Shown one piece after another: positions 8,959 to 31,245 of a stretch of DNA of 31,438 bases. The notes beneath the pieces were generated by a model, which was not told the origin of the DNA, made no database searches, and saw only the letters and a list, made by a program, of their open reading frames with translations. The DNA is from an uncultured Chroococcidiopsis sp. Lineage in GTDB: Bacteria > Cyanobacteriota > Cyanobacteriia > Cyanobacteriales > Chroococcidiopsidaceae. Position numbers and translations under genes: made by a program. The number at the start of each line of letters is the position of its first letter. Positions within the stretch are counted from its first letter, which is position 1. Location of the stretch: positions 94,232 to 125,669 of the forward strand of contig CAXTYC010000012.1 of the NCBI GenBank assembly GCA_964248365.1, in the 5' to 3' direction.

Positions 8959-10227
8959 TCAAAACCTACCCAATTCGACTGTATAGCTAATACTTAAAAA
9001 CAGGTTATCAAAATCAATATTTGGATCAGAAGAACCACCAAAACTGACACCACCTTGAAGATTTATCTGACTGTCATGGGATGTAGCATAAGTTAAGCTG
9101 CCCAGAATTAAATGATAGTTATCATTGCGATCGCGCTGCGTAAAATTTGAGGCGGCAAACTGATAGCCAAGACCAATCTGAAGGCGTGGTTTTACATAGT
9201 AAACCAAATCGGCTGACAAAGAATTGATTACTCGACTGCGACTATCTGGATCGGCAAATCCCAGTTGAAATTCGTAGAGAGAATTTAACCATAAATTATT
9301 ACTGATTTTATCTTGCCTCTGAAGGGCTAAGCGTAAGGCATTCTCATTGAGAAAGCGATCGCCTGTTTTGGCAATAAATAATTCTTGATTGTTCCAACCA
9401 ATTTCACCAAACATTTCTGGTGTTAGCTGGTGACGCAACCCTGCTCTAAGTCTTAATAGATTGTAATTAGCGTTAGAATGCTCGACATAACGAATTATTT
9501 TACCATCAATTGCCGTTATCAAACTAGTTTTATTTCCTAATTTTGGGGCAACAAAAAGCGTTAAATTAGATGAAAATAAACCATCTTCAACCGGATCAAC
9601 TAGGAAAAATATATTATTTGATTGAAAATATCCAACTTGCCCTATTAAATGCCCAATTGGTTGATAGGGTGGAGACTGTAATTTTTGCTTCTGCACTCGC
9701 AGAGTTCCTAATTCTGGATCTCCATCTTTCTTGTGTACATCTACTTTTTCCTCTTTTGCCTCCAACTGTGTTTTAGGTATTGTCTGAGCCAGTAGTAGAC
9801 AGTAGCGAGAGGCTAGGGAATTTTGGATTTTAGATTTTGGATTTTGGATTAAATTTTCTCCCCAGATCCCCAGATCCCCTCTTCCTCCCAACCCCACGAA
9901 GTGGGGACCCCGAAGCCCCCCTGTCCCCAGTTCCGAAGGAACCGAGTCTCCCGATTCCCCCCAGATCCCCTGCTTCCCCAGCTCCCCCTGCTCTCTTTGC
10001 TTAGAGGTGGCTGCAATTGTTGCCCTGTGTTCAAAAAAAAATCCGACTATGCTACTTGCAGTGCATAAAATCAACAGCCCGCTTGCAAAAGACACTCTTT
10101 TAGTAAAGGTAGAGAACTCTTGAAAAGGATTCTCCCTTGTTGCTTTGACGAAAAATCTATTTTGCAAGAAGTCTAGTCTTTGGATATGCTGGTCAATAAT
10201 ATTAGCTTGAACTTTAAAATTAGTCAC
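8959..10227 (-). CDS. Putative outer-membrane beta-barrel protein (start uncertain)
   Basis: The C-terminal ~230 aa show alternating amphipathic beta-strand patterns rich in Y/F/G/Q and end in LSISYTVELGRF (terminal Phe beta-signal). There is an N-terminal hydrophobic stretch, and an STRR-derived in-frame insert at about 9811-9995. Confidence 0.7.
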   Translation of the reverse strand: MTNFKVQANIIDQHIQRLDFLQNRFFVKATRENPFQEFSTFTKRVSFASGLLILCTASSIVGFFFEHRATIAATSKQREQGELGKQGIWGESGDSVPSELGTGGLRGPHFVGLGGRGDLGIWGENLIQNPKSKIQNSLASRYCLLLAQTIPKTQLEAKEEKVDVHKKDGDPELGTLRVQKQKLQSPPYQPIGHLIGQVGYFQSNNIFFLVDPVEDGLFSSNLTLFVAPKLGNKTSLITAIDGKIIRYVEHSNANYNLLRLRAGLRHQLTPEMFGEIGWNNQELFIAKTGDRFLNENALRLALQRQDKISNNLWLNSLYEFQLGFADPDSRSRVINSLSADLVYYVKPRLQIGLGYQFAASNFTQRDRNDNYHLILGSLTYATSHDSQINLQGGVSFGGSSDPNIDFDNLFLSISYTVELGRF

Positions 10228-10543
10228 ACTGGATAGAAAAATATATAATCTTATTGAATGAGTTGCAAAAGTTCACCTAGTAATAAGAATTTATTAGGTA
10301 CGCCTTCCGCAAACATAGACTAATTCAGGAAGTAGCAATTCCATATCCGCAAAACTACGGTATTATGAAGCGTTGATAAGGATGTGCGGATTCGGGTAGA
10401 TTTTAATCAAACAATTAAAGTTCTTTTGCAAAGAATCGAGATCTTTGTGCAGCTCCCGCTTTTAAATGGGCATACTAGAATTGTTAATTGTTAATGGCTG
10501 ATTGTTCATTGCAATTAGCTATTAACCATCAACCATTAGCCAA

Positions 10544-12007
10544 ATGTGTCGCCGATTCGTTGTATTCATCACCTTTATTCTCTGGAGTACTACAACACTG
10601 CCTCTACCAAAGTCGGCTAGTGCTGAAACTGCTTTAAATCGGGCTATTGTGCAAAGCTTACGCAACTTGGCGCAACTGATGCCACAAAATCGCTCCCCCC
10701 ATCCGGCGCGGGTATCAGATGCCATGACACCAGGGGATGCATTGTCTACTGGTCGCTCTTCTTTGGCAGAATTGCGCTTCAACGACGGCTCTTTGGCAAG
10801 AGTTGGCGAACAAGCGATATTTCGATTTGTCAAGAAGACACGTAACTTTCAATTGTCAAACGGAACTTTACTGCTGCTAATTCCCCCAGGTAGGGGACAA
10901 ACAGACGTGTGGACACCTAATGCAACAGCAGCAATTCGCGGCTCAGCATTATTCATACGTTACATTCCTGAAACTGCAACTACTGTTGTGGGAGCATTAA
11001 CCAATAGCAAAATCGAGGTATCTAACCCAAAAGCTTCCCAGCGTCAGGTATTGCAAGCAGGTCAAATGGCAGTTGTCGTCAAAGACACAATTGAAGGGCT
11101 ATACAACTTCGATCTCAAAACTTTTTATCAAACCAGCGATTTAGTACAGGGACTGGATCTAAATAAGAAAAGTGGTAAAGCTAGTTTAGATCCAGCGATC
11201 GCCTCTGTGCAAGCTGAAACTGCCACAGCCTTGGCTGCACAACCAGCTCTAACTGACGCAGGAGTAATTGTTAATCCAACTTTTGTCAGCCGTCCAGAAA
11301 ACAATCAAACTCAACAGCCGAATTTAAATCTATCGCAAGACAGCCAAAATCCTTTTAATAACAATTTTGATTCTATTAATGAGTTTTTAGAGAACTCAGA
11401 AGTTATTTCAAATCCAGATAATTCCCCATTATTGCCTACCAAGGCTGAACCCTCGATTAGTGTTCCACCGCAAAGCGGCTTTCCAACTCCATCTGAAGTT
11501 AATAATGGGGGTTCTACAAATGAGTCGGGTGTGAACAATGGTGGTTCCTTTAATGGCATACAACAGCCAAACGGGGGTAACAACTCAATTGGCGAAGGTG
11601 TTGGTGGTCGAGTTGAAAGTAACCCTGCTAACAGCAGTGGGAATGCGATCGGCGGTGGTGTAGGTGGAGGGGTGGGAAATAACCCAGGTAGCGGTAATGG
11701 GATCGGCGGTGGTGTAAGTGGAGGGGTGGGAAATAACCCAGGTAGCGGTAATGCGATCGGCGGCGGTGTAGGTGGAGGGGTGGGAAATAACCCAGGTAGC
11801 GGTAATGGGATCGGCGGTGGTGTAGGTGGAGGGGTGGAAAATAACCCAGGTAATAATGGCAATAATAATGGAGTTGGTCAAGGTGTAGGTGGTGGACGTG
11901 AAGATAATCGCGGCAATGGCAATGGCAATAATAATGGAGTTGGTCAAGGTGTAGGTGGTGGACGTGAAAATAATCGTGGTAACGGCAATGGCAACAATCG
12001 ACGTTAA
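10544..12007 (+). CDS. Exported FecR-domain protein with Gly/Asn-rich repeat tail
   Basis: Signal-like N-terminus. GDALSTGRSSLAELRFNDGSLARVGEQ...TPNATAAIRGS is the FecR-family pattern (GD.l.T....A.L.F.DGS...lg; TP.a.a.vRGT). The C-terminus is low-complexity. Confidence 0.85.
   Translation: MCRRFVVFITFILWSTTTLPLPKSASAETALNRAIVQSLRNLAQLMPQNRSPHPARVSDAMTPGDALSTGRSSLAELRFNDGSLARVGEQAIFRFVKKTRNFQLSNGTLLLLIPPGRGQTDVWTPNATAAIRGSALFIRYIPETATTVVGALTNSKIEVSNPKASQRQVLQAGQMAVVVKDTIEGLYNFDLKTFYQTSDLVQGLDLNKKSGKASLDPAIASVQAETATALAAQPALTDAGVIVNPTFVSRPENNQTQQPNLNLSQDSQNPFNNNFDSINEFLENSEVISNPDNSPLLPTKAEPSISVPPQSGFPTPSEVNNGGSTNESGVNNGGSFNGIQQPNGGNNSIGEGVGGRVESNPANSSGNAIGGGVGGGVGNNPGSGNGIGGGVSGGVGNNPGSGNAIGGGVGGGVGNNPGSGNGIGGGVGGGVENNPGNNGNNNGVGQGVGGGREDNRGNGNGNNNGVGQGVGGGRENNRGNGNGNNRR
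11639..11986 (+). repeat. Coding tandem repeats: 4x54 bp, then 2x66 bp
   Basis: Units start at 11639, 11693, 11747, 11801 (GN(A/G)IGGGV(G/S)GGVGNNPGS) and at 11855, 11921 (NGNNNGVGQGVGGGRE(D/N)NRGNG). Confidence 0.95.
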
Positions 12008-12099
12008 TACTAGCTGGCGCGCTGTTAGCTGGCGCGCTGTTATTAGTTTGTTTATTTGTATAGCAATCCGCGCATCATTGGTGAATAGTAGATGAAGGG

Positions 12100-12151
12100 G
12101 TTTGCCACCCATGCCCACCATGATCAAATTTGGTGGGCATGGGTGGCATAC
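12100..12151. repeat. Palindromic element (GTWTGCCACCCAT family), probable terminator between convergent genes
   Basis: Perfect 18-bp arms TGCCACCCATGCCCACCA / TGGTGGGCATGGGTGGCA with a 10-nt loop. Confidence 0.88.
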
Positions 12152-12192
12152 TAATCGCTAAAAGCTAATTGCTAAAAGCTAATCGCTAATCG

Positions 12193-14613
12193 CTAATTGT
12201 TTTCTGATGAAGGTGGCAAAAGATTTGTAGCAGAATCTGGAATTTTTGTAGAATCAGATATCCAAATAGCTGTAGGAGTGTCTAAATCTTCTGGGGTTTC
12301 ATTATTGTCAAATCTTTTGCCAGACAAAGAATTTGTGGAATCTATGAACTTGGTAAGAGCATTCAGGGCAACTGATGCGGAACTATAGCGCCGCCTGAAG
12401 TCATGTAGTACCATTGTGTTTAAGATTTCAGTTAACTGGGGACTAATTTGTACTTTATCTGTCCAGAGTAACTCTCCAGTTGTAGTGTCTAGCTCTAGTT
12501 CGTGGGGTGCTAACCCAGTTAAAGCTTTGATCGCACTCATGCCTACAGCATAAATATCACTACTGAAGAAGGCACGACCAGCGTTTTGCTCACTTGGGGC
12601 ATAACCGTGAGTACCGATGCTAACGGTAAGGTTAGTTTTTTCACCTGGCTCCAGTAATTGTGTGGTAACTTGTTTGACAGCTCCAAAATCAATTAGTACA
12701 AGCTTGCGGTCTGAATGCCGTCGCATGATATTACTGGGTTTAATATCGCGGTGGATGACATTGTGATTGTGGACGAATTCCAATATTTGCAATAAATCGT
12801 GCAAAATTTTGATCGCTTCGTCTTCACTAATGGGTTTACCTGGTTTGAGTTCCCAGCTAAGAGGATGCCCGACAATGTATTCTTGGACTAAATAAAATTC
12901 TTCGTCCTGTTCAAAATAGGCAAGCAGTTGAGGAATTTGGTTGTGTTTGCCGAGTTTTTCCAGAGTTTCTGCTTCTAGTTGAAATAACCTTCTAGCAATT
13001 TGCAATTGCTTGGGATCGTTGTTAGCTGGTTTGAGTTGCTTGACCACACATAGCGGATTCCCTGGACGTTGGTTATCTTCAGCTACATAAGTTTGACTGA
13101 AGCCACCATCACCTAAAACTTTGACAATTTTGTAGCGTCCTCCCAGGATTTTCCCAGAGGTAACGGGATCTTGCTGTTGTAGTCGGTCTTGGGGTTCATC
13201 CACAGAGCTAATAACATCTTGTACGAGCAAAGAGGAATCATCCTCTAAGCTGCGTTGTTGTTGTCTCAAGTTTTGGCTAATTGATCCTGCCACTAGGTAT
13301 GTAGTACCGCACAGAGCGATCGCTATCATCGGTAGGGCAGTAGGTAAAATGAGATACTGGTAGGTAAATAAGGTATAACTAATACTTCCCCAAGCAATGG
13401 CAAAGCCTAGCCCCATGCCCCATCGAGTCAAGGGGCGTTTAAAGAGAGTCAAAAGTACCGCCGAACCACCTACAAATAGCAATACCAACAAACCCCGCAT
13501 CTGTAGATTAGGAATTGCCTCTCGTATCGCCCGTCCTTGTAGTAAAGTGGCGATGCTACTTGCTTGAATTTCCACTCCGGCGAGGCGTTGGGGATACAAC
13601 CAGCTTTCGGAAAAAGGTGCTTTATGTAAGTCTTGCAACACGGCAGCTGTTGCCCCAATCAGCACAATTTTGTCTTTGAAATACTTTCCCTGCTGGAGAT
13701 ATGTATTCCAATTATCCGAATCGAGTACGTGCCAAAAAGGAATTTGCTCGAACGTCCCCGTCGGACCATAAAAATAAATGCGATCGCCTTTTTGAGGGGC
13801 TAGGGAATTTTGGATTGGGAATTCTCCCCCAGATCCCCCAGATCTCCCTAAAGAGGCTGCTGCCACAACTGCTTTTTCAAACGAGGGGATTGATATTTTT
13901 AGAGCGTCAAAATTTAAAAATTGCTTCTGGGATTTCTCGGCTAAGAGCTGGGGAAAAACACTTGCAAATCTGTGAATTCGCCCATCCGGTTCTACTGGGA
14001 AATTAACGAATCCAAGAGACCTTGGTGTTGTCCAAAGCAGGCGTTCCGGCTGTGTCAGTTGAATTACACTTCCCTGGCGCAGCGTTAGCTGTTCATATTG
14101 TGCTGCTAAAGTGACTCTACCAGGATAACGCTGCAATACTTGGGCAAAGGCGCGATCGTCTTCTATCCCGTAGCTACTGGGGCTAGCAAATACAATATCC
14201 AAGGCAACAGAGCGTACCCCTGCTTTCATGAGTTTGTCAATTACAAGCGCATAGGCACGGCGTTGCCAAGGCCAAGCTTGCAATGGTTTTAGATAAGAAT
14301 ATTGTTGTGGGTTGGTTTGATAGTATTGCTCTGGGACTGATAAAGACTGCTCATCAATTGCCAAAATCACGATGCCTTTTGGTGGTTCCATCGGGCCTCG
14401 GATTTCAAAAAACAGGCTTTGCGTTTCCGATTCTATTATTTGTACTAGTCCTACGTTGGCAGATGTAGCCATTGCTGCTAATACTACCCAAGTTGCTGTG
14501 AGAATATGACCAATACGGGCAAGTCGGTCATATTGGCGTAGCTTGACTTGTGATGACGCAATGCCAGTGGAAGTTGTTTGGCTGGTTTGAAGCGGTTTGC
14601 GGTTGTGTCCCAT
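12193..14613 (-). CDS. CHASE2-domain membrane Ser/Thr (Hanks-type) protein kinase
   Basis: CHASE2 motifs IVILAIDEQSL, WPWQR, VALDIVF, KDKIVLIGAT and GVEIQA, then 3 TM helices. Kinase motifs LGDGGFSQTY, VVKQLK, HRDIKPSN, IDFGAVK, GTHGYAPSEQ and SDIYAVG. Confidence 0.95.
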   Translation of the reverse strand: MGHNRKPLQTSQTTSTGIASSQVKLRQYDRLARIGHILTATWVVLAAMATSANVGLVQIIESETQSLFFEIRGPMEPPKGIVILAIDEQSLSVPEQYYQTNPQQYSYLKPLQAWPWQRRAYALVIDKLMKAGVRSVALDIVFASPSSYGIEDDRAFAQVLQRYPGRVTLAAQYEQLTLRQGSVIQLTQPERLLWTTPRSLGFVNFPVEPDGRIHRFASVFPQLLAEKSQKQFLNFDALKISIPSFEKAVVAAASLGRSGGSGGEFPIQNSLAPQKGDRIYFYGPTGTFEQIPFWHVLDSDNWNTYLQQGKYFKDKIVLIGATAAVLQDLHKAPFSESWLYPQRLAGVEIQASSIATLLQGRAIREAIPNLQMRGLLVLLFVGGSAVLLTLFKRPLTRWGMGLGFAIAWGSISYTLFTYQYLILPTALPMIAIALCGTTYLVAGSISQNLRQQQRSLEDDSSLLVQDVISSVDEPQDRLQQQDPVTSGKILGGRYKIVKVLGDGGFSQTYVAEDNQRPGNPLCVVKQLKPANNDPKQLQIARRLFQLEAETLEKLGKHNQIPQLLAYFEQDEEFYLVQEYIVGHPLSWELKPGKPISEDEAIKILHDLLQILEFVHNHNVIHRDIKPSNIMRRHSDRKLVLIDFGAVKQVTTQLLEPGEKTNLTVSIGTHGYAPSEQNAGRAFFSSDIYAVGMSAIKALTGLAPHELELDTTTGELLWTDKVQISPQLTEILNTMVLHDFRRRYSSASVALNALTKFIDSTNSLSGKRFDNNETPEDLDTPTAIWISDSTKIPDSATNLLPPSSENN

Positions 14614-20679: not shown

Positions 20680-20729
20680 TTAATCGAACTGCCTCCCTGC
20701 GCTTCCTAGCACATTAGATTATGAAAAAA

Positions 20730-20757
20730 TACTCTCTTGCTGTTAGACAAGAGAGTA
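20730..20757. terminator. Hairpin, probable terminator after the methyltransferase
   Basis: TACTCTCTTG-8 nt-CAAGAGAGTA, with an A-run before and TTTT shortly after. Confidence 0.55.
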
Positions 20758-20843
20758 GGGTCTTTTGTAGTAATGCGTAAGAGGTAATATATATAGGATT
20801 ACTAAAAATTTAGTTCATAAATGTGGCAGTAATGTGTTAATTA

Positions 20844-20922
20844 TATGACAATGCTGTGACGTAAATATTTCACAAAAAGGACACAGCGTAGACACACATT
20901 AGACATAGAACTTATCTAAGGT
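20844..20922 (+). promoter_or_regulatory. OmpR/PhoB-type phased repeat array plus -10, upstream of esterase 1
   Basis: TTCACA (20869), GACACA (20880), GACACA (20891), GACATA (20902), 9 nt, then TAAGGT. An additional opposite-strand GTCACA-N5-GTCATA lies at 20860-20844. Confidence 0.7.
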
Positions 20923-20947
20923 GTGATTAAAATTATCTTTAATTAAT

Positions 20948-21838
20948 ATGAAGTACAAACAATATAAAAGGATTAGCTTTGCTCTGCTGCTAGCTTTAGC
21001 AAGTTTGAGTTATAGATATGTGGCGATCGCTAGTGTACCTCAACCACAGACTTCCCCAGCTACAACATCAACCACGAACTTAAGCTACCAGCTTGAAACT
21101 TACAACTCTCAGGTAATGGGTGGTAAAAGAACCTATGGCGTTTGTTTACCTCCTGGCTATGAGCAAAACCAAAATCAGCGCTACCCTGTAGTTTTTCTCC
21201 TACATGGAGGACACGGCAATCCTACTGACTGGTTTAACCCGCAAAAGGGATCAGCCTTAAAAACCTTGCAGCAACTATATGCCCAAGGCAAGTTACCACC
21301 TACTATTATTATCACCCCAGATGGTAACGATTTACGCGGTTCTAGTCCCAAATTTGATCCACAATATTTTGATGGTCCTAACGGCAAGGTGTCTACGGCA
21401 ATTGGGGAGGAATTGGTGCAAGTCGTTTCAAGTCGCTACCGGACACTTCCCACTCCGAAGTTTTGGGCGATGGGTGGGCTATCTTCTGGGGGATGGGGTG
21501 CAATCAATGTGGGACTACGGCATCTAAATCACTTCTCGATTTTGTTCAGCCATAGTGGTTATTTTGTCGATAATAGTGGAGCGCAAAATAGTCCACTGAA
21601 ATATATTAAAAATATTTCTCCTCAAGCCAGACAGAATTTGGTAATTTACTTAGATACTGGCACTGGGGATAGTTATTATCTTAATCAAGCGCAAAAGTTT
21701 CATGACTTGCTCAATAAATTGCAAATTAAAAATGTGTTTAATTCGTTTCCAGGGACTCACAGTTGGCGATATTGGCGGCAGCATTTGGCAGATTCTCTAA
21801 CTTATGTGGGGGAACAATTCCGAATTCGTAATTCATAA
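20948..21838 (+). CDS. Exported esterase-family alpha/beta hydrolase (esterase 1)
   Basis: Signal peptide, YPVVFLLHGG, nucleophile elbow GLSSGG, YLDTG..D and PGTHSWRYW. Confidence 0.9.
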   Translation: MKYKQYKRISFALLLALASLSYRYVAIASVPQPQTSPATTSTTNLSYQLETYNSQVMGGKRTYGVCLPPGYEQNQNQRYPVVFLLHGGHGNPTDWFNPQKGSALKTLQQLYAQGKLPPTIIITPDGNDLRGSSPKFDPQYFDGPNGKVSTAIGEELVQVVSSRYRTLPTPKFWAMGGLSSGGWGAINVGLRHLNHFSILFSHSGYFVDNSGAQNSPLKYIKNISPQARQNLVIYLDTGTGDSYYLNQAQKFHDLLNKLQIKNVFNSFPGTHSWRYWRQHLADSLTYVGEQFRIRNS

Positions 21839-21861
21839 TTGAAAAATCAAAATTATGAGCA

Positions 21862-22710
21862 ATGAAGCCAAACAACGTGAAGCTCGAAGATGATGTTGTT
21901 AATGACCCTTTAGCAGGTGAAAGAATTCATCTGCGTTGGGGTGTAGATTTGCAGGTTTGCTACAGTCAGGGAAAAACTCCTGCAATTGTATTTTTGCATG
22001 GTGGGTTAGGAAACCGCTTCAACTGGCGATCGCAATACGAGTTTTTCCAGTCTGGGGGTAGGGAAGTTTTAGCTTACGACTTAGCTGGACACGGGCAATC
22101 TGTCCCCTACCGTCGCTACTCTTTGGGACGGTATTGCAGAGATTTAACCAGACTATTGCACAAATTCCACATCTCTTCTCCCATTTTGTGCTGCCATAGC
22201 TATGGAGTTCCTCTCGGTTTAGAGTGGGCAAGGCGGCATCAAATTAGTGCTTTAGTTGCTATTGCTGGCGGTACTCATGACCTCGATCCTTGGTGGGAAG
22301 TACCGCTAATGAAGTTCCTCGCTTGGGGTGGTAGACACTTGTATCGATTACCACGAGTACAGCATCTGACCAATACTTTAAGTAGCACTCATCGTCATGA
22401 TGTGATGCAGCGGTTTTTTGCCGAAGCCCCAGTGCCAACTAATGTGCATCCTTATAAAGCTTTAGAAATATTTTGGGGCTATAACTTCTTTGAGCGTCAC
22501 TTAACCCATTGGCAGCCGGAGATTCCCCTACTGGTAATTAGTGGTGGGCAAGATCCGACATTTACTGCCCAAATGGGAGCAGATTTAGCCGCCAGCTTTG
22601 GGCAAGGAACACATTTGCATATAAAAGAGGCGGGACATTTAGTGATGGCTGAGTATCCAGAAGTAATTAATGATGCGATAGCGAGATTCCTCATCCAACA
22701 TAGATTATAG
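21862..22710 (+). CDS. Alpha/beta fold hydrolase (no signal peptide)
   Basis: VFLHGGLG, YDLAGHGQS, CHSYG nucleophile, GGQD and AGHLVMAE. Confidence 0.9.
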   Translation: MKPNNVKLEDDVVNDPLAGERIHLRWGVDLQVCYSQGKTPAIVFLHGGLGNRFNWRSQYEFFQSGGREVLAYDLAGHGQSVPYRRYSLGRYCRDLTRLLHKFHISSPILCCHSYGVPLGLEWARRHQISALVAIAGGTHDLDPWWEVPLMKFLAWGGRHLYRLPRVQHLTNTLSSTHRHDVMQRFFAEAPVPTNVHPYKALEIFWGYNFFERHLTHWQPEIPLLVISGGQDPTFTAQMGADLAASFGQGTHLHIKEAGHLVMAEYPEVINDAIARFLIQHRL

Positions 22711-22713
22711 TCA

Positions 22714-22773
22714 GTTTGCCACCCATGCCCACCATCTTATAATTTGTAATTTGGTGGGCATTGCCCACCAAAC
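22714..22773. repeat. Palindromic element (GTTTGCCACCCATGCCCACCA...TGGTGGGCATTGCCCACCAAAC)
   Basis: The left 21 bp are identical to 12100-12120; it lies between convergent stop codons. Confidence 0.85.
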
Positions 22774-22781
22774 CTTGTGGG

Positions 22782-23714
22782 TTAGGCTGCTAATCGCTGG
22801 CGAAGCTCATAAATGCCCAAGAGTAGGACGGCAATTATCAATGGTAGGAAGTAGTAGATACCTCGGTATGCCAAAAGCGCTCCCAAGAGGGTAGGAGATG
22901 AGATAGGGGGCGAGAGCAACAGTAAAATTATTGTCTCAAACACACCAAGTCCGCCTGGAACATTGCTGATGAGTGCTGCAATTTGTGCTAGCAGGTATAT
23001 CCCGAAAAAACCAGGGAAAGACAAACTACTTGATGGTAGAAGCGCGTAGAGGACACTTGCTGCTAGTGTCCAATCAAGGGAAGCCACCAGAAGTTGAGCA
23101 ACGGCGAACTTGGTAGAGAGATGGGGAAATACCAACTTACCAATTCTTAACGCATTCCTGCTGAGAGTATTCCATACCAGATATCCCACCACCAACAGCA
23201 GAAATATTGCTCCCACAGGCTGCACTGAAGCAAACGGAAGGTGGAGTAAGCTTGGAACTGCCAAGGGTTCCTTTAAAAACATCACACCACTAACTGTAAA
23301 AAGTCCCAGCCAGAAGCTTAAATTGCAAAAAGCAACTATATTGGTAATCTGAAGCGCTGATAATCCCCAGGTTGAGTAAAGCCGATAGCGGATAGCACTA
23401 CCAGTTAGTAGAGCAAATCCAATAGTATTACTAATGGCATAAGTAATGACAGATGTTAGCGCGATTTTTCCATAGGGGAGTGGATGGCGAACGTACCGCA
23501 TACCAAGAGTGTCATACGCAGTTAGCATTAAGTAGTTTAATACGGTCAGTACTAGCGCCAACAGCAGGTGATTTTTGGGAATTTCCTCCAGGCTGTGTAA
23601 GACATCACGATAGTTATACTGTTTCAGTTCTAGATTAATCGCCCACAGGGAAAGCCCAAATAGGAGTAAACCAAAAATTGGGGAAGCAAATTGAGACAGG
23701 CGCTTTAGATTCAT
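22782..23714 (-). CDS. MprF-type flippase / lysylphosphatidylglycerol synthase TM domain (stand-alone)
   Basis: LTAYD, LTGSAIRYRLYSTWG, SNVPGGLGVFE and LLAYRGIYYFLPL are motifs of the MprF N-terminal membrane domain; about 8 TM helices. Confidence 0.9.
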   Translation of the reverse strand: MNLKRLSQFASPIFGLLLFGLSLWAINLELKQYNYRDVLHSLEEIPKNHLLLALVLTVLNYLMLTAYDTLGMRYVRHPLPYGKIALTSVITYAISNTIGFALLTGSAIRYRLYSTWGLSALQITNIVAFCNLSFWLGLFTVSGVMFLKEPLAVPSLLHLPFASVQPVGAIFLLLVVGYLVWNTLSRNALRIGKLVFPHLSTKFAVAQLLVASLDWTLAASVLYALLPSSSLSFPGFFGIYLLAQIAALISNVPGGLGVFETIILLLLSPPISSPTLLGALLAYRGIYYFLPLIIAVLLLGIYELRQRLAA

Positions 23715-23764
23715 GCGAAAATCGTGGTTTTTATTACAGCATCTGGATCGTCGAATCTTAGGTC

Positions 23765-25438
23765 TTAGGTATCAGGTTTGAAATAATCTAGCAAGCGATC
23801 GCCAGAGTCAGCCCGAATCAAAGCAACCACAACGGATGGTAAAGCCCTTAAACTGGGATAAACCAGATAACGCGGCTCCCAGCGGGGGTGAAATTTTTCT
23901 TTGTAGGCGTGTAAACCTTTGAAGTTATAAAATTTATTTAGGTGTTCGTAGAGATAGCGTAACCCCTTTTCCAGACGAGGAGAGTCGCTCGTTTCACCTA
24001 CACCAGAAAGCGCTGATAAACCCAAATTAAAGCCGTCGTATCCCAATTCTTTGAAATGCCCAAACATTGAGATAAATAAGAAATCCATCGTGCCAGATTC
24101 TACCTCGCTACGATGCCGCATTAAATCAATCGTGATTTCGTTAATTTGATACTCCGGTACGACATTGGCAAAAGCAGTTATGTAACCCTCTTTTGTCTCT
24201 ACAGTAGCAATTTCACACTCGCGCAAATAATCATCATCAAACCAACCGACTGAAAACTTTTTTTCCGCCCCTTGCATCAACTTCAGCCATTCATCACTAA
24301 CGTCTCTCAACTTGAGTAACAACTTATCTGAAATTGGTGGTTGGTAAAATTTGACTTGATATCCCGCCTTGGTAAGGCGATTGTTGTAATTTCTGAAGTT
24401 CTGGTTAGCTTTTCCCTTCAGGCTAAACGTTTGAAGATCGACGATCGCTTCTTCGCCCATTCGTAGCACTCTAAAGCCAAGGTTTTGATAGAGGTCGAGG
24501 TCATCTGGTAGAGTTTGGTAAAAGGCAGGATACCAATCATTGCGAGCGCAAAATTGTCCAAACCCGATCAATACTTCTTTTCTGTCTTCGACTGGACCTA
24601 TGGGATCTCCCAAAGCGATCGCCCCCCGCCCCTTTGCTACATAAGCGATTACACTTTGACCTGATGGGCTGAAATAGTAAGCCTTATCATCAAATAAAGT
24701 AAATCGTGCCAAAGAAGATCGGCCATATTGCTCTACAATTGCCTTAGCTTGCTTTCGTTCCCTAGAATCAGCTCTATCGCGCACCAGAACGGGGCGCAGT
24801 AGCATAAACAGGGCATAACCCACAGTCACAGCACCGACAATATAAATTGAATTAGCAAAAAAGTTTGCGAAGCGAGTTTGTGGTTGCAGCCCAGCGTTAT
24901 CCTCTGTGAAGAACATCGCTAGGGTTTGCAGCAGTGCTTGTGTTAAAGAAAACTTGACTTGATAATAACGTTGATCTATTAGATAAAAACCTGCTGTACC
25001 ATAAGCTAGTGTGAACAGCAACGCTGCGATCAACACTCGAATACCCTGAGCAATTGAGGGACGATCTGACTGGGCTGTAAACACATTCCGCATCAGCAGC
25101 AATTGAATTAGCAATACCCCAGATAGCAGACTCTCCTCATAATCCAATCCCTTGACTAAATGGCTGATTATTGATATAATTAGCAAACTGACAGTGAGCA
25201 ACCAAGCAACTCGCTTGCGCCGTAACAAATTAGTGGCAAGCGTTAGCAGCACAAAGCCAGTAAGAGCTGCAAATAGATGCCCACTTACCCTGATTTCAAA
25301 AGGAAAAAATTGTTTGAGTATTGCTGTCCGCCCTCGTAAGTTGGGGGTTACGGCAGACACCAGGTTAACCACTCCCACTAATCCGGTTAGTAGTGCTGCT
25401 GTCCATAAGCTTATTTGATTACGCTTCACACTTAGCAA
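23765..25438 (-). CDS. Aminoacyl-phosphatidylglycerol synthase (MprF C-terminal/DUF2156 domain with ~6 N-terminal TMs)
   Basis: LLRRKRVAW, ALGDPIGP, MGEEAIVDL, FSVGWF, IDLMR, GTMDFLF, FNLGLSAL and FYNFKGLHAYKEKFHPRWEPRYL. TTG start 8 nt after GAGGAG. Confidence 0.92.
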   Translation of the reverse strand: MLSVKRNQISLWTAALLTGLVGVVNLVSAVTPNLRGRTAILKQFFPFEIRVSGHLFAALTGFVLLTLATNLLRRKRVAWLLTVSLLIISIISHLVKGLDYEESLLSGVLLIQLLLMRNVFTAQSDRPSIAQGIRVLIAALLFTLAYGTAGFYLIDQRYYQVKFSLTQALLQTLAMFFTEDNAGLQPQTRFANFFANSIYIVGAVTVGYALFMLLRPVLVRDRADSRERKQAKAIVEQYGRSSLARFTLFDDKAYYFSPSGQSVIAYVAKGRGAIALGDPIGPVEDRKEVLIGFGQFCARNDWYPAFYQTLPDDLDLYQNLGFRVLRMGEEAIVDLQTFSLKGKANQNFRNYNNRLTKAGYQVKFYQPPISDKLLLKLRDVSDEWLKLMQGAEKKFSVGWFDDDYLRECEIATVETKEGYITAFANVVPEYQINEITIDLMRHRSEVESGTMDFLFISMFGHFKELGYDGFNLGLSALSGVGETSDSPRLEKGLRYLYEHLNKFYNFKGLHAYKEKFHPRWEPRYLVYPSLRALPSVVVALIRADSGDRLLDYFKPDT

Positions 25439-25496
25439 AAGCTCATCTCCTCATCACAAAATTACTCAATTTTTAGATAGTTTTCTTTTAGTGTGC

Positions 25497-26426
25497 CTAA
25501 TTATTTCGTTTTTGTAGTGCTGCTTGAAACTGCTTACCCACATAGCTCAGCGAATCCGCTGCGTGTTTGTGGTCATAATTCCATCCCATATCAGGACCAG
25601 ACAAACCATGACCACCTGGGAAGGCATAGAAAACATTGTCAATGCCTAACTGATTCAAGGTTTGATGGAACTTTCGGGTAGAGTCGAGAAATTCGCTGCC
25701 AGTTAAGTCATTAAGTCCAGCATCTAGATAGATGTGCAAGCGTTGGCGCTGCTCAGCGGGAATCTGTTTGACAAATACTTGAGGGCTGTTCTGGGGTCCA
25801 CTGTCATCAGTAAAATAACCGATGTGACTAAAGAAAATATTGAAGTTGTCCAAATGGCGTAACCCAATGTTGAGCGCACCCCATCCACCAGAAGACAGCC
25901 CCCCCATTGCCCAAAACTGTGGCTCGTCGTAGGTGCGATAGCGCGATTTGACAACTTCAACCAGTTCTGAGCCAATTAACGTACCAACGTTCCCATTGGG
26001 ACCATCGTAATAATCGGGGTCAAACAGCGGACTTGAACCCCTTTTGTCATTGCCATCGGGGGTAATTACAATTGAGTATGGCAGCTTACCGCTTTTGTAG
26101 AGGTCATGCAGAACGGGGATAATGCCAATCTTGTCTACCCAAGCACGGGCATCATCGTGTCCGCCGTGTAACAAGAAGATTACAGGATAGCGTTTATTGG
26201 TATGGTCGTAACCAGGAGGCAAAATTAGACCGTATTGGCGTACCTCGCCCATTGCCTTACTGTTAAAGGTTTTGAGTTGAAAGGTCAGACCTGTGCCAGC
26301 GGTACTGACGGTGGGCGGATCTAACTGGGGCGCACCAGCAATAAACACATACCAGTAGCCTGCCGCTCCTACAGCTGCTACTGTACCGATAAAAATCGCT
26401 AAAATTTTGCCATAACGAAATTTCAT
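25497..26426 (-). CDS. Membrane-anchored/exported esterase-family hydrolase (esterase 2, paralogue of 20948-21838)
   Basis: N-terminal TM helix, YPVIFLLHGG and GLSSGG. Shares the block ITPDGND.RGSSP.FDP.Y.DGPNG.V.T.IG.ELV.VV.SRYRT with esterase 1. Confidence 0.9.
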   Translation of the reverse strand: MKFRYGKILAIFIGTVAAVGAAGYWYVFIAGAPQLDPPTVSTAGTGLTFQLKTFNSKAMGEVRQYGLILPPGYDHTNKRYPVIFLLHGGHDDARAWVDKIGIIPVLHDLYKSGKLPYSIVITPDGNDKRGSSPLFDPDYYDGPNGNVGTLIGSELVEVVKSRYRTYDEPQFWAMGGLSSGGWGALNIGLRHLDNFNIFFSHIGYFTDDSGPQNSPQVFVKQIPAEQRQRLHIYLDAGLNDLTGSEFLDSTRKFHQTLNQLGIDNVFYAFPGGHGLSGPDMGWNYDHKHAADSLSYVGKQFQAALQKRNN

Positions 26427-26819
26427 ATCAAGTCACATTTTGCTGGGTTTTGTAGAATTGGCTCCAATCATAATTGGGGCAAGTAGAGGATGAGTGTTGA
26501 GTCAGGCGAGGCTGATATATTCTCATGGCAATATTTAACCTAAATGAGAGACAATAGCGATCGCTTGAACTGATAATATTTATGACTATTTACCTCTATC
26601 ACTAAAACTAAACTAATATCTTTGCAGATTTATTTTGACTGGGTGTGTCGCTTAGATTAACCTAAGGTGACGAGTTTGAAAATTCAATGATTATGTTAGG
26701 TTCACATAAATTAATGCTAATTAATCTCTTTTGCTTTTACAACCGCTACAAATGCAATTGCTCAAACTAACCGAATCTAAATCCAAAATCTAAAATCTAA
26801 GGCTCCAAAATCGTCAGAG

Positions 26820-27527
26820 ATGGATATTTTAATTATTGAGGATGAACCGGAAATTGCCCGACTCATTCAGCTATCTTTAGAAAAAGAAGGGTTTTCGTGC
26901 CAGATCTGCCGCGATGGTTTAACTGCTTTGCGAATTGCCCAGGATGTGCAGCCAGACTTAATCATCCTTGACTTGATGTTACCAGGTTTGGATGGACTGG
27001 AAGTGTGCGCTCGAATACGACAAAAACCTGGAGCGAAAGATCCTTATATTTTGATGGTGACAGCTAAAGGTGAGGAAATCGATCGCGTCATTGGTTTATC
27101 TACGGGAGCTGATGATTATCTAGTCAAGCCTTTCAGTCCCAGAGAATTAATTGCTAGAGTGCGGGCATTACTGCGGCGTAGCTTGCGTCAAGGTGGACAA
27201 CAACAGATCTATCGAAGTGGGCATTTCATAGTAGATGTTGAGCAACGCACAGCCAGCATACAGTATAATTCCAATTCTCCAGAAATGCTGGACTTAACCA
27301 CTTTGGAATTTAACCTGTTATCGACATTTGTCAGCCATCCTGGTCGAGTTTGGAACCGTACCCAGCTAATTGACAAACTTTGGGGAAGTGACTTCTTTGG
27401 AGATGAGCGGGTAGTAGATACTCATGTAGCGCGGCTCAGGAAAAAAGTAGAGCCAGATCCAGCAAATCCCACTTTTATCAAGACTGTTGTTGGTGTTGGC
27501 TATAAATTTGAAGATCCAGCAGTTTAG
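26820..27527 (+). CDS. OmpR/PhoB-family response regulator
   Basis: IIEDE, LIILDLMLPG (phospho-Asp), GADDYLVKPF and the winged helix ERVVDTHVARLRKK...TVVGVGYKF. Confidence 0.96.
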   Translation: MDILIIEDEPEIARLIQLSLEKEGFSCQICRDGLTALRIAQDVQPDLIILDLMLPGLDGLEVCARIRQKPGAKDPYILMVTAKGEEIDRVIGLSTGADDYLVKPFSPRELIARVRALLRRSLRQGGQQQIYRSGHFIVDVEQRTASIQYNSNSPEMLDLTTLEFNLLSTFVSHPGRVWNRTQLIDKLWGSDFFGDERVVDTHVARLRKKVEPDPANPTFIKTVVGVGYKFEDPAV

Positions 27528-27538
27528 AGAACCCAGTT

Positions 27539-28627
27539 ATGAGGTTAGGCTTGCGATCGCGTCTTTTTCTCTCCCATGTGCTAGTAACGGCAGTAGGGAT
27601 ACTCAGTCTTGTGATCATCGGCAAAGTCTCCTCACCTCGCTTTTTTGTCGTCCACCTGCAACAACTAGAAGATGAGGGTTGGGATTTAATCGATGTCCGT
27701 ACTGAATTGGTTCAAGGATTTGAAGCTGCTTGGTATCTTGGTACTGTTTGGTCAATACTGATCGGCTCAACCGCAGCTGGGGGGTTAAGTTACTGGGTGT
27801 CCAAACGGATTATGCAACGTTTAGCCGAAATGGAACAAATCACCCAAAAGTTTGCCGTCGGTGAACTAGATGCACGGCTACCAGCTAGTGATATTCCCGA
27901 ACTTAACCGCCTAAATACCAGTTTCAATCGTATGGCGGCAAGTTTGTCAGGGGTAGAACAGCGGCGGCGAGAACTCGTGAGCGATCTTACTCATGAACTG
28001 CGGACACCACTGACAGTTGTGCGCGGTTACTTAGAGGAACTTGCTGACGGCGGACTTGAACCATCTTCAGAGATTTATCAACAACTAATCAGAGAAACCA
28101 AACGGTTGGAACGCTTAGTAAACGATTTGCAAGAACTCTCCAAGGCTGAGGCTGGATACTTACCAATCAACTTGCAAGCAGTTAATCTGCGTCCCTTGCT
28201 GGAGTCATTGGTAGAAAAATTTGCCGACCAGATTTTAGAAGATGGTCCAGTTTTGCGTCTAAAATGTCCCCTCCAGCTACCTCTGGTATTAGCCGATCTT
28301 GACCGCACCGAGCAAGTTTTGGTTAACTTGGTTGGTAATGCAGTGCGTTACACTCCTAAAGGTTCTATTACCGTCCGTGTCTGGACTGAACCTGGTAAAG
28401 TATGGATTGCAGTAATTGATACAGGTATTGGTATTGCCCCAGAGGATTTACCCCATGTATTTGAGCGCTTTTTTCGTGCCGATCGCTCTCGTACTAGGCA
28501 TTCTGGGGGTACTGGTATTGGTTTGGCGATTTCCCGCCGTTTAGTTGAACTACAAGGTGGGCAAATTTTTGTGGAAAGTCAACAAGGATCGGGTAGTATA
28601 TTTCGGTTTTTCTTGCCTTTGGCTTAA
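27539..28627 (+). CDS. BaeS-like sensor histidine kinase (2 TM, short loop, HAMP, HisKA, HATPase)
   Basis: THELRTPL, NLVGNAVRYT, DTGIGI, FERFFR and GTGIGLAI; only about 35-40 aa between the TM helices. Confidence 0.95.
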   Translation: MRLGLRSRLFLSHVLVTAVGILSLVIIGKVSSPRFFVVHLQQLEDEGWDLIDVRTELVQGFEAAWYLGTVWSILIGSTAAGGLSYWVSKRIMQRLAEMEQITQKFAVGELDARLPASDIPELNRLNTSFNRMAASLSGVEQRRRELVSDLTHELRTPLTVVRGYLEELADGGLEPSSEIYQQLIRETKRLERLVNDLQELSKAEAGYLPINLQAVNLRPLLESLVEKFADQILEDGPVLRLKCPLQLPLVLADLDRTEQVLVNLVGNAVRYTPKGSITVRVWTEPGKVWIAVIDTGIGIAPEDLPHVFERFFRADRSRTRHSGGTGIGLAISRRLVELQGGQIFVESQQGSGSIFRFFLPLA

Positions 28628-28633
28628 TAGTAA

Positions 28634-28762
28634 GGGGTTAGAGACTAGGGGCTAGGGGCTAGAAGAAAGTTGGGGGAGCTAAAGGGAGCTAAAGGGAGCT
28701 AAAGGGAGCTAAATTTATAATCTCTCGCCTCTCGCCTCTGGTTCCTCTCGCCCCTAGCCCCT
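28634..28762. repeat. STRR arms (GGGGCTA / CCTCTCG, CCCCTAG) flanking (GGGAGCTAAA)x4
   Basis: 10-mer x4 at 28674-28713, with inverted heptamer arms on both sides. Confidence 0.88.
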
Positions 28763-28801
28763 GATGCCTCCTACATCGCTAATCTCCAATTACTAATAGC
28801 T

Positions 28802-28855
28802 TTCACCCTTTTGACACAATATAGTCATAAAGCCGTCACATCTAGCTGTTAATTT
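28802..28855 (+). promoter_or_regulatory. OmpR/PhoB-type phased repeat array plus -10, upstream of the RRM gene
   Basis: TTCACC (28802), GACACA (28813), GTCATA (28824), GTCACA (28835), 9 nt, then TAATTT. Confidence 0.72.
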
Positions 28856-29086
28856 AAAGCTATCTGACTTTTACAACTCAAATCCTTAGCGCCCTAGCCG
28901 CCTGCTGCCGACTCTTTGTATCAAAGGGTTACTCTCCCTTGAGGCTCCTTAGCGTCTATGCGCGAACAAAATCCCAGCACCCTAAGTTTCCCGATTGCAA
29001 TTAAATTCTAGTCAATTTAGATTCTAAATAATTTTTTGGGAATACTTTGGTTAGGTGTGCCAATTGCATTTGAGGAGTTCTATTCT

Positions 29087-29365
29087 GTGACCATTTTCAT
29101 TAACAACTTGCCTTACCAAATGTCTCAAGCAGATGTACTGGAATTGTTTGCCGACTACGGTGCTATTAGGCATATTTTTTACCCAACAAACGGTCGTACA
29201 GGTCAAGGACTTGGCTTTGCCTTTGTAGAAATGTCTGTAAAATCTCAAGAAGAAACGGCTAAGTTGGATCTAAATGGTTGCCCATTCATGGGGAATCAAT
29301 TGGAAATTAGAGAAGTGAGTTCTGAAGAACCTATTCCAAATAGGCAAATAAGTTACTTAGATTGA
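29087..29365 (+). CDS. Divergent RRM (Rbp-like) RNA-binding protein (92 aa)
   Basis: RNP2 IFINNL and RNP1 LGFAFVEM. GTG at 29087 follows GAGGAG (29072-29077) and is preferred over the TTG at 29036. Confidence 0.85.
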   Translation: MTIFINNLPYQMSQADVLELFADYGAIRHIFYPTNGRTGQGLGFAFVEMSVKSQEETAKLDLNGCPFMGNQLEIREVSSEEPIPNRQISYLD

Positions 29366-29393
29366 GTTTTAGAAAAATTCAATTTATACCTTG

Positions 29394-29420
29394 TGAGGGA
29401 GAAATTCTCCATCTCCCTCA
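29394..29420 (+). terminator. Hairpin downstream of the RRM gene
   Basis: TGAGGGAGA-9 nt-TCTCCCTCA, with no strong U-tract. Confidence 0.45.
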
Positions 29421-29469
29421 GCATAATTAAAGTCAATATAAATAACATTTAATTCGTCAATAATTTCAC

Positions 29470-29583
29470 ATGATTTTAGTATTACCTCCTGTTTTTCTAG
29501 CTATATCTCTGGTTGTTTTACTGACTTTATCAGGATTCGGAGCGATCGCCTATTTGTTTCCTGACGACCACTCTCAAGATTAA
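29470..29583 (+). CDS. Putative 37-aa single-TM small protein (absent from the ORF track)
   Basis: Hand translation MILVLPPVFLAISLVVLLTLSGFGAIAYLFPDDHSQD*: an uninterrupted hydrophobic stretch plus an acidic tail. No clear SD sequence. Confidence 0.5.
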   Translation: MILVLPPVFLAISLVVLLTLSGFGAIAYLFPDDHSQD

Positions 29584-29624
29584 GCCTACTAGCTCTCTTG
29601 CGCTCGTCTACATTAACCCACCAG

Positions 29625-29703
29625 GTATGCCACCCATAGCCAGCAAATTATTTATGGTGGGCGAAGTTGGGTATTACACCATGCGGAGGGATGGGTGGCA
29701 TAC
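29625..29703. repeat. 79-bp element with perfect 13-bp terminal inverted repeats (MITE/REP-like)
   Basis: GTATGCCACCCAT...ATGGGTGGCATAC; same termini family as 12100-12151. Confidence 0.8.
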
Positions 29704-29826
29704 TTTTACTCTTAAAATTAGACTTTCTGCACAAGTCAGTAAAAGGGAAAAGGGCAAGGGAAAAGGAAAATGCAATTCCTTTAACCCTTGTCCCTTTCGC
29801 AATCAGAGCTATCGCACTGTATTTTG

Positions 29827-31119
29827 CTACTGTTGTTCTGCTTGGGCTGTTAAAGCCTCTGGACGCACAGCCAAGTCAAAATTTCGCCCATTGCGATGCA
29901 GCCCTATTCGCATTTGACTACCCACAGAGCTATTTTCTACCGCCTGTTGTACAGTTTCAGCGCTCTTTACAGTTTGCCCATTGATCTGGTGAATTACATC
30001 TCCTGCGCGCAAACCAGCTTTAGCCGCCGGAGAATTAGGCATGACTTTAACAACCAACACGCCACTATCTTCATCCACAGTCAAACCACTGTTAGGATCG
30101 CTGTTGATATTTTGTTTCAACTCAGGTGTGAGTTGCGCCATCTGAATACCCAAGTAAGCGTGTTCTACCTTGCCTTTGGCGATTAGTTGCTGGGAAATAC
30201 GTTGAGCTGTATTAATCGGAATCGCAAAGCCTAAACCTTGAGCGCCTTGGAGAATTGCTGTATTCATCCCAATTACTTCACCACGAGCATTCAGCAGTGG
30301 TCCACCGGAGTTACCTGGATTGATTGCAGCATCGGTTTGAATAAAGCTAACTCGCTTATCAGGAACGCCAACATCGCTGCTAGAGCGACCTGTAGCACTG
30401 ATGATACCTGTAGTGACGGTATTATCTAATCCTAGAGGGTTGCCGATCGCGATCGCCCATTCCCCAGCCTTGAGCCGATCCGAGTTACCCAAAGCTACCG
30501 TAGGCAGCTTATTTGCCTGAATCTTAACAACGGCTACATCGGTAACAGTATCTTCACCCAACACCTTACCCTGATACTTACGTCCATCCTTCAGAGTCAC
30601 TGATACTGTATCCGCACCATCAACAACGTGGGCATTGGTAAGAATACGACCATCGGCACCAATAATAAAACCAGAGCCAGTCCCGCGTTCAATCTGCTTT
30701 TGAGATTGTTTGGGTAATTGCGACCCAAAGAAATCACGAAAGAACGGGTCTTTAAATATCTCTGGAGCTTGAGTAGTAACAGTTCTAGAAGAATCAATCC
30801 TTACTACAGCAGGTCCCACTTTGTCAACCACAGCAGTCACAAAATTGGTGTCCCCAGTCGGTGGCAAACTAGCTACAGTCGTTGGAGGTGGTGCAACAGA
30901 TTGTTGAGAATTAGCTGGCTGTGCTGCTAGAGAATTTCGCGCCTGCAAGTAATTTCCAGAAACAGGAATTGCAGCGCCTAGTAGTATTAATGATAAATAT
31001 GTAGCAGACTTCTGCCATAAAAATTTTTTATTAGCCCCAGTTGGATGAACTGAAGCATTTGAGGAAATATGATTGGATTGACCCGAACCACGATGGAAAT
31101 TAGGCTTTTTGATTTGCAT
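29827..31119 (-). CDS. HtrA/DegP-family (HhoA/HhoB-like) serine protease with one PDZ domain
   Basis: GTGSGFII, LTNAHVV, DVAVVKI, QTDAAINPGNSGGPL and a C-terminal PDZ (SPAAKAGLRAGDVI). ATG 31119 follows AGGAGG. Confidence 0.95.
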   Translation of the reverse strand: MQIKKPNFHRGSGQSNHISSNASVHPTGANKKFLWQKSATYLSLILLGAAIPVSGNYLQARNSLAAQPANSQQSVAPPPTTVASLPPTGDTNFVTAVVDKVGPAVVRIDSSRTVTTQAPEIFKDPFFRDFFGSQLPKQSQKQIERGTGSGFIIGADGRILTNAHVVDGADTVSVTLKDGRKYQGKVLGEDTVTDVAVVKIQANKLPTVALGNSDRLKAGEWAIAIGNPLGLDNTVTTGIISATGRSSSDVGVPDKRVSFIQTDAAINPGNSGGPLLNARGEVIGMNTAILQGAQGLGFAIPINTAQRISQQLIAKGKVEHAYLGIQMAQLTPELKQNINSDPNSGLTVDEDSGVLVVKVMPNSPAAKAGLRAGDVIHQINGQTVKSAETVQQAVENSSVGSQMRIGLHRNGRNFDLAVRPEALTAQAEQQ

Positions 31120-31191
31120 TCGTAATACCTCCTGTAAGGAGGAAGGTAAAACCAAGTTTTGTTTAATTGCTTTCTTGTGCTGACACTTCTA

Positions 31192-31245
31192 AGTGTATAC
31201 ACCTTTTATGAACTTCTTGTGACAGAGTTGTTGCATAGGAGTGAA
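31192..31245 (-). promoter_or_regulatory. OmpR/PhoB-type phased repeat array plus -10, upstream of htrA
   Basis: Minus strand reads TTCACT-N5-GCAACA-N5-GTCACA-N5-TTCATA, 9 nt, then TACACT. Confidence 0.72.

Follow-up and report, generated by a model that had tools for sequence, protein, structure and literature searches.

A promoter element of phased hexamers, met repeatedly in a 31,438-nt stretch of DNA from an uncultured Chroococcidiopsis sp. (contig CAXTYC010000012.1 of assembly GCA_964248365.1, positions 94,232 to 125,669 of the forward strand; the whole stretch is referred to as the window), is conserved across many cyanobacteria and, judging from sequence comparison, probably acts as the site at which the regulator of the neighbouring two-component pair binds. 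This pair, an OmpR/PhoB-family response regulator and a membrane histidine kinase, is of the Hik10-Rre3 type. We consider it probable that the hexamer arrays serve the Rre3-type regulator as direct binding sites from which it activates the protease gene htrA, the gene of an unannotated membrane microprotein (33-37 aa) and a group of predicted small RNAs (sRNAs) carrying the seed of Yfr1. The pair and its link to htrA are already known; no publication describing the cis-element or the wider target set came to light. The literature searched consisted of full texts, with few subscription papers and without the 2014 proteomics paper on Sll0649; therein the box, the microprotein and Rre3-linked sRNAs are undescribed, and since most subscription papers lie outside it, they may have been described before.

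Three of the arrays share one geometry, as a preliminary description of this DNA had proposed: four hexamers at a period of 11 bp, followed after a gap of 9 nt by a -10 element TANNNT. Array 1, on the plus strand before an esterase gene (esterase 1), has its boxes TTCACA/GACACA/GACACA/GACATA at 20869-20907 and TAAGGT at 20917-20922; array 2, likewise on the plus strand and 3' of the kinase gene, extends over 28802-28855, with boxes TTCACC/GACACA/GTCATA/GTCACA at 28802-28840 and TAATTT as the -10 element; array 3, on the minus strand before htrA, has boxes TTCACT/GCAACA/GTCACA/TTCATA at 31245-31207 and TACACT at 31197-31192. A scan of the organism's own 5.58-Mb genome with the pooled hexamers, which returned arrays 1 to 3 among its top matches together with several sites outside the window, revealed a fourth array of equal geometry that had been overlooked (20860-20807, minus strand), with boxes GTCACA/GTCATA/AACACA/GCCACA at 20860-20822 and TAAATT at 20812-20807. 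The rule that the first box always reads TTCAC holds for arrays 1 to 3 and is common at htrA promoters (TTCAC or TTCAT); it fails elsewhere, box 1 being TACAAG or TACAAA behind the kinase gene in most relatives and GTCACA or GTGACA at the sRNA promoters. Because box 1 is variable outside the htrA promoters, boxes 2 to 4 are understood as the core, with the consensus G(T/A/C)CA(C/T)A, 11-bp spacing and an array end placed 9 nt before the -10 element. The phoA promoter of E. coli has the same geometry (GTCATA, GTCACG, 9 nt, TATAGT), and PhoB at phoA shares with the arrays the GTCA(T/C)A/G box, the 11-bp period, the 9 nt to TANNNT and the absence of a -35 element (PMC1906773). Differences to PhoB exist in the number of boxes, three to four compared to two, and in the targets, which are not phosphate genes. 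The phoA-like box, the period and the gap support the proposed OmpR/PhoB-type architecture in which the repeats replace the -35 element.

When the genome was scanned with a position model trained on 23 htrA promoters of other genomes, arrays 3, 2 and 1 came out as ranks 1, 2 and 3 genome-wide (scores 36.2, 36.1 and 32.4); array 4 scored 26.4. Six sites in the genome score above 25, compared to none in the reversed genome and none in each of 10 column-permuted models. The test is not fully independent, because the training sites had been picked by the window's own hexamers and 9-nt gap. A gap-free test of the period on 234 related loci (2.14 Mb), none of them retrieved by the array pattern, gave 84 distinct box triples at period 11, as opposed to 3, 0, 1 and 0 at periods 9, 10, 12 and 13; TANNNT is found exactly 9 nt past the last box in 78 of these 84 (12 of 16 without near-duplicates). 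Period and gap are kept across non-homologous promoters and across orders. One might still suppose that the repeats reflect chance or local duplication and have no regulatory meaning, given an AT-rich intergenic background and a reversed control pattern that matches 8 of 151 genomes. The genome-wide ranks, the empty controls above a score of 25 and the conservation of spacing between unrelated promoters speak so strongly to the contrary that this explanation retains a negligible probability, and we count it as refuted. A site with three copies of TTCACA (C8:142417, score 20.3), which has no TANNNT and resembles a tandem repeat, was left uncounted.

Assignment of the pair draws on domain and homology searches. 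The regulator gene lies at 26820..27527 and the kinase gene at 27539..28627, both on the plus strand; the kinase has an N-terminal transmembrane (TM) segment, a short loop and a probable second TM segment of moderate hydrophobicity, followed by HAMP, HisKA and HATPase domains. A one-way search with the regulator gives a single match at E<1e-55 in each of the genomes G122 and G146 (73% identity), and both primer sites published for sll0649, which is rre3 (PMC4361706), fall within that match with 3-4 mismatches. The cysteine spacing of the regulator is 36, equal to that of C38/C74 in Rre3. In G122 and G146 an SLT gene follows immediately downstream of the kinase match, just as the SLT gene slr0534 follows hik10 (slr0533) (PMC3514855); the kinase is moreover a reciprocal best hit, the search with the G122 copy returning the window kinase first (E 2e-121 vs 7e-37). 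Based on the primer sites, the SLT neighbour and the reciprocal match, the regulator is identified as the orthologue of Rre3 (Sll0649) and the kinase as that of Hik10 (Slr0533). The protein homologue search returned no Hik10 name. PhoB is the regulator's best match among the NCBIfam models, yet it stays below the TIGR02154 cut-off (227 vs 296), and the pair is below cut-off for the CpxR, BaeR, CpxA and BaeS models. Traits of a Pho regulon were not found: apart from the missed cut-off, the motif differs from CTTAACCT and there are no phosphate targets among the sites seen. A supposed link to alr1170-alr1171 was set aside; the one passage found refers to it as a hik31 operon.

In Synechocystis PCC 6803, control of htrA by Hik10-Rre3 under salt and hyperosmotic stress has been published (PMC3195437, PMC3264485). 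Since the window pair is orthologous to this genetically characterized pair, its link to htrA is not new, and the statement of the preliminary description that no such regulon had been described in cyanobacteria requires correction to that extent. The two systems have in common the orthologous kinase and regulator; htrA (slr1204) is the target in Synechocystis, and an array stands at its orthologue. They differ in that the pair genes are adjacent in the window and unlinked in G032 and G122, and in the predicted regulon, which here is larger by the microprotein, the sRNAs, the esterase and an RNA-binding (RRM) protein. Autoregulation of the pair finds no general indication, none of 77 regulator upstream regions scoring above 16. 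Only in G038 does an array lie in the gap separating the two genes, immediately ahead of the kinase gene (L283, G038:C9:99795), and a lineage-specific autoregulation of the kinase is predicted from it. The small second contig G004:C2 (370 kb) carries the pair, an htrA orthologue, the RRM gene, an mprF module, the microprotein gene and one sRNA, and the close relatives G001-G003 have no pair; the set on this contig is possibly a mobile or plasmid-borne module.

The HtrA/Deg protease of the window is encoded on the minus strand at 29827..31155, its likely start being ATG 31119. A quick tree built from 69 Deg proteins places it in a weakly supported group (support 84) of array-bearing htrA genes. 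The published promoter primers for slr1204 (PMC5559466, Table S1) match G122 and G146 exactly and flank the array, so the array marks the true htrA, that is, the slr1204 orthologue. Published htrA cloning primers had no match at up to 3 mismatches. In both genomes (L136/L137) the ATG that opens the slr1204 reverse primer lies 5 nt past the -10 element, out of frame with the 419-aa open reading frame (ORF), for which reason a shorter slr1204 start is likely the real one. Expression of slr1204 is lowered in the sll0649 mutant (PMC5559466). The array at the slr1204 orthologue and the pair dependence published for Synechocystis support htrA as a probable target of the pair, as had been suggested.

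Occurrence of the boxes across genomes follows that of the pair. In a phylum sample of 151 genomes, from whose counts the organism's own genome was excluded, a relaxed pattern is present in 25 of 36 kinase-positive as compared to 8 of 114 kinase-negative genomes (pair absence was re-checked in five of the eight), the reversed control being the one given above. Among close relatives, a strict pattern is found in 13 of 26 genomes with the pair and in 1 of 14 without. Of 80 loci, 65 have the array immediately after the kinase gene. Five of five Synechocystis-like genomes have exactly one site of the relaxed pattern, each at htrA. The full architecture occurs in 35 rows of the htrA tree, namely 34 of the 38 pair-positive rows of the array-bearing group and one row outside it, and in none of the 13 rows from pair-negative genomes; the informative orthologues among these 13 are two, with the array lost in G006 and eroded beside an intact -10 element in G030. 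This co-distribution, together with the Rre3/Hik10 orthology, supports the earlier nomination of the local pair and makes it the likely regulator.

Several observations weigh against direct activation by the Rre3-type regulator. The relaxed pattern was devised with the htrA sites already in sight, and because the genomes are related, the counts overstate independence; 11 of the 36 kinase-positive genomes have no such pattern, the one match each in G093 and G170 lies away from htrA, and the argument from the htrA tree, a quick one, comes down to the two informative rows of 13. The pair-negative genomes G002 and G006 retain two good boxes and the -10 element at an sRNA promoter that is 96% identical to that of pair-positive G004 (loci L224 and L225 were left out of the scoring of sRNA promoters). 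OmpR-family proteins often need phosphorylation to bind DNA. With purified His6-Sll0649 on the slr1204 promoter, DNA affinity purification with quantitative PCR (DAP-qPCR) gave an enrichment of 1.054-fold, and the electrophoretic mobility shift assay (EMSA) showed no shift (PMC5559466); judged on the G122 and G146 sequences, the probe covers the whole array. The binding buffers listed there contain no phosphodonor, and missing phosphorylation may be the reason why this one in vitro test of Sll0649 failed. Binding of Sll0649 was reported at slr0946, sll1598 and slr0798 (PMC5559466). As regards the transcription start, the slr1204 unit from differential RNA sequencing has a 122-nt 5' untranslated region (PMC4195498); projected on G122 and G146, the published start coincides with the end of box 4, has no -10 element upstream and is located ~23 nt upstream of the predicted start. 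The htrA gene has also been assigned to the PerR regulon. Two of the outcomes that the preliminary description had named as refuting its proposal, lack of binding by the regulator and a start not following the -10 element, are hence represented in published Synechocystis data, the former for the unphosphorylated protein.

The negative binding data, and the boxes persisting at the sRNA promoter of the pair-negative genomes, would be expected if another OmpR-family regulator (CopR, ManR, RpaB, SphR or a different one) occupied the arrays and Hik10-Rre3 acted on htrA indirectly. The CopR motif TTCAT-N4-5-TTCAT overlaps the box variant TTCATA (PMC4182526), and to this degree the earlier caveat that another regulator could account for binding remains in force for CopR; CopRS is reported in the same source to control cop operons only. 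RpaB and SphR do not fit: RpaB recognizes 8-nt repeats at a 10-bp period (HLR1; PMC6525291), at which no box triple was obtained, and SphR binds CTTAACCT (PMC1906773), a different motif that has its own site in this genome. The arrays, in addition, track the Hik10 orthologue through the phylum, and most loci of its gene have one immediately behind it. We therefore consider a different binding protein unlikely and hold to the Rre3-type regulator.

The conserved product of array 2 is a microprotein of 37 aa with a single TM segment and the C-terminal motif YLFP-x(4)-QD, previously unannotated (29470-29583, plus strand). All 65 box-positive loci have it behind the array: 64 directly, and L001, like the window, after an RRM gene. 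Its relatives are ORFs of 27-37 aa that end in YLFP and have one hydrophobic helix and no conserved cysteines. Matches at E<=1e-3 are present in 13 of 151 genomes, all kinase-positive, and in none of the 114 kinase-negative ones; weaker matches occur in 10 further genomes, some of them kinase-negative. Sequence change is of the coding type (codon position 3 > 1 > 2, synonymous > non-synonymous), and the gene stays behind an array when relocated away from the kinase gene (G038, G028). The microprotein belongs to no Pfam family, and leads from the ESM Atlas, all below 0.9 (hypothetical clusters 0.82, MgtS-like 0.79), were not used. The RRM protein (92 aa; 29087..29365, plus strand; start most likely GTG 29087, preceded by GAGGAG, not 29036) had been regarded as the gene served by array 2. 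It is found behind the array in only three loci, all of genus g1 (window, L001 and G004), and by sequence comparison is a genus-level insertion between array 2 and the microprotein gene, so that the earlier view of it as the purpose of the array is abandoned. Short tandem heptamer and decamer repeats, which we take to be of the STRR kind, fill window positions 28640-28760 between the kinase stop codon and array 2. Locus L067 has CRISPR-array-like repeats directly after the kinase gene, array and microprotein being missing there, and at G000:C35:38687-38749(-) (L250) a 43-codon frame gives another, partial match to the profile of the microprotein (E 4e-5).

There is an analogy to the PhoQ/PhoP-MgrB system in that the microprotein, like MgrB (PMC12648545), is a small single-TM protein predicted to be controlled by the regulator. 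It is distinguished from MgrB by having no sequence or Pfam relation shown, by the lack of conserved cysteines and by its location beside the kinase gene. Feedback of the microprotein on the kinase, as of MgrB on PhoQ, is suggested by this analogy as a tentative idea and is the weakest step of the proposed mechanism.

Array 4 is predicted to drive a ~77-nt sRNA on the minus strand (20724..20800) with a seed ACCTCTTAC at ~20785-20777 and a terminator hairpin at 20757-20730 followed by a U-run; this hairpin might serve the methyltransferase gene of the opposite strand as terminator too. The predicted fold (z -5.38, 0 of 200 shuffles as stable) leaves the seed single-stranded. The sRNA aligns with array-led units of relatives (14 loci), many of which bear the Yfr1 seed CTCCTCACACC, and array-led Yfr1-seed units are present in three families (f1, f15 and f25). 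Outside the window, the organism's genome (G000) contains three further sRNA-like units led by an array, each with a terminator (G000:C8:150199(+), C8:112495(-) and C2:22186(-)), whose seeds are the Yfr1 motif at C2 and near-variants at C8, compared to the diverged ACCTCTTAC of the window copy. Neither the window nor 9 sRNA loci matched an Rfam family. Canonical Yfr1, encoded between guaB and trxA (G000 C16), lacks an array, and the literature calls it constitutive (PMC6974561); the array-led copies are separate loci. They share with Yfr1 and Yfr10-like sRNAs the seed CTCCTCACACC ahead of a terminator and the complementarity to murC and OprB start sites, and the Yfr10-like arrangement, the Yfr1 motif in a separate short unit ended by a terminator, is present at G000 C2 and in several relatives. 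Extra RNAs with the Yfr1 motif are known from the literature, and the regulators of Yfr10 are there called unknown (PMC6778093). We suggest the array-led Yfr1-seed sRNAs as new predicted targets of the regulator.

Complements of the Yfr1 seed exist in 7 of 3590 start regions, including murC and three OprB/SLH porins; murC and OprB porins are validated or predicted classes of Yfr1 targets (PMC6974561). The changed seed of the window sRNA matches the ribosome-binding region of one porin over 11 nt. For the window copy this is a further point of doubt, the match being a weak one: 3 of 3590 start regions contain a match of at least this length, and by duplex energy the porin falls outside the top 15. 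As a target of the window sRNA, htrA was rejected (rank 317 of 3590).

The predicted target of array 1 is esterase 1 (PF00756; 20948..21838, plus strand), which has an N-terminal hydrophobic segment, and an alpha/beta hydrolase gene (21862..22710, plus strand) is likely co-transcribed with it across a 23-nt gap. The array is absent at three homologous esterase genes without mprF and is therefore seen as lineage-specific at esterase 1. Lipid aminoacylation had been included in the regulon by the preliminary description; we do not find it supported. The operon of esterase 2 and a split mprF (C-terminal part of the synthase, flippase part; 22782..26426, minus strand) is on the strand opposite to array 1, has upstream a weak array (26633-26671, minus strand; score 15.4) that is not followed by TANNNT after 9 nt, and the full architecture is present in 1 of 9 such operons. 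It is linked to the pair and is not a conserved target of the array. Modules of a two-gene mprF preceded by a PF00756 esterase occur divergent to the Rre3 gene in G013, G026, G014 and G007 (L255, L258, L260 and L263); of 41 genomes, 10 contain an esterase homologue, and each of these has the kinase or the regulator.

Candidate sites outside the window mostly precede secreted proteins or lipoproteins. In one case (G000:C58:5853(+), L274; score 28.1) ~445 nt separate the end of the -10 element from the start of a Pls/PosA-type single-module nonribosomal peptide synthetase; in another (G000:C32:30820(+); 27.4) the gene behind the array encodes a sulfocyanin/cupredoxin-like lipoprotein of 172 aa. 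A tandem of four paralogues at G000:C9:140800-142570 (L271) encodes small secreted proteins, basic or His-rich; three of them have weaker arrays that end in CATACT or CATATT in place of TANNNT. Esterase 1 and the RRM protein appear as lineage-specific additions, as probably do several secreted proteins encoded outside the window. In genus g4 (G016, G020 and G009; L158-L160) a conserved array precedes an ORF of 220-228 aa. A cluster at window positions 8959-14613 encodes an outer-membrane-like protein, a CHASE2 Ser/Thr kinase and a protein that combines a FecR domain with Gly/Asn-rich repeats.

In the mechanism proposed, the Hik10-type kinase would use its TM segments and short loop to sense that the membrane or envelope is perturbed, and would phosphorylate Rre3. 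Phosphorylated Rre3 dimers, arranged head-to-tail on boxes 2 to 4, would replace the -35 element and recruit RNA polymerase as PhoB does. HtrA would then clear damaged envelope proteins, the sRNAs are predicted to lower translation of porins and murC, and the microprotein might close the circuit at the kinase. Protease induction, sRNA repression of outer-membrane proteins and a small feedback protein constitute the logic of the CpxAR, CssRS and sigma-E systems. The predicted circuit is alike, whereas the pair is not orthologous by NCBIfam cut-offs and envelope damage is a putative inducing signal. A narrower reading is that Rre3 binds the arrays and the regulon comprises htrA with lineage-specific passengers, the microprotein and the sRNAs having no feedback or envelope role and the signal being salt, osmotic or metal stress. 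It agrees with the single site, and the lack of a microprotein match at E<=1e-3, in the Synechocystis-like genomes, with the published inducers salt and hyperosmotic stress (PMC3264485) and Cd (PMC5559466), and with the sRNAs and the microprotein being predictions from sequence. Selection of the coding type on a microprotein that stays behind an array when moved, array-led Yfr1-seed RNAs in three families and the secreted or lipoprotein character of most off-window products argue to the contrary, and we regard this narrow regulon as improbable, favouring the broader one.

At its furthest extension, the broader regulon would depict Hik10-Rre3 as a cyanobacterial envelope homeostat, convergent with Cpx and PhoPQ. 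The pair would have adopted the PhoB-type GTCAYA box, which SphR had left unused; stress-inducible Yfr1-seed sRNAs would act on top of constitutive Yfr1 and stop the translation of porins and murC; an MgrB-like microprotein would bind the kinase; and Synechocystis would have kept the htrA arm only. This complete picture is speculative, and we consider it doubtful as a whole. So far, Hik10-Rre3 has been a stress pathway with one target and, in the literature searched, no box. The precise candidate box, applicable phylum-wide, makes the regulon directly testable, and it nominates a candidate regulator for the Yfr10-like sRNAs as well as a conserved, unannotated microprotein as candidate regulator of the kinase. 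If true, the proposal would provide a defined envelope-stress circuit for cyanobacteria, together with a compact design of an inducible promoter.

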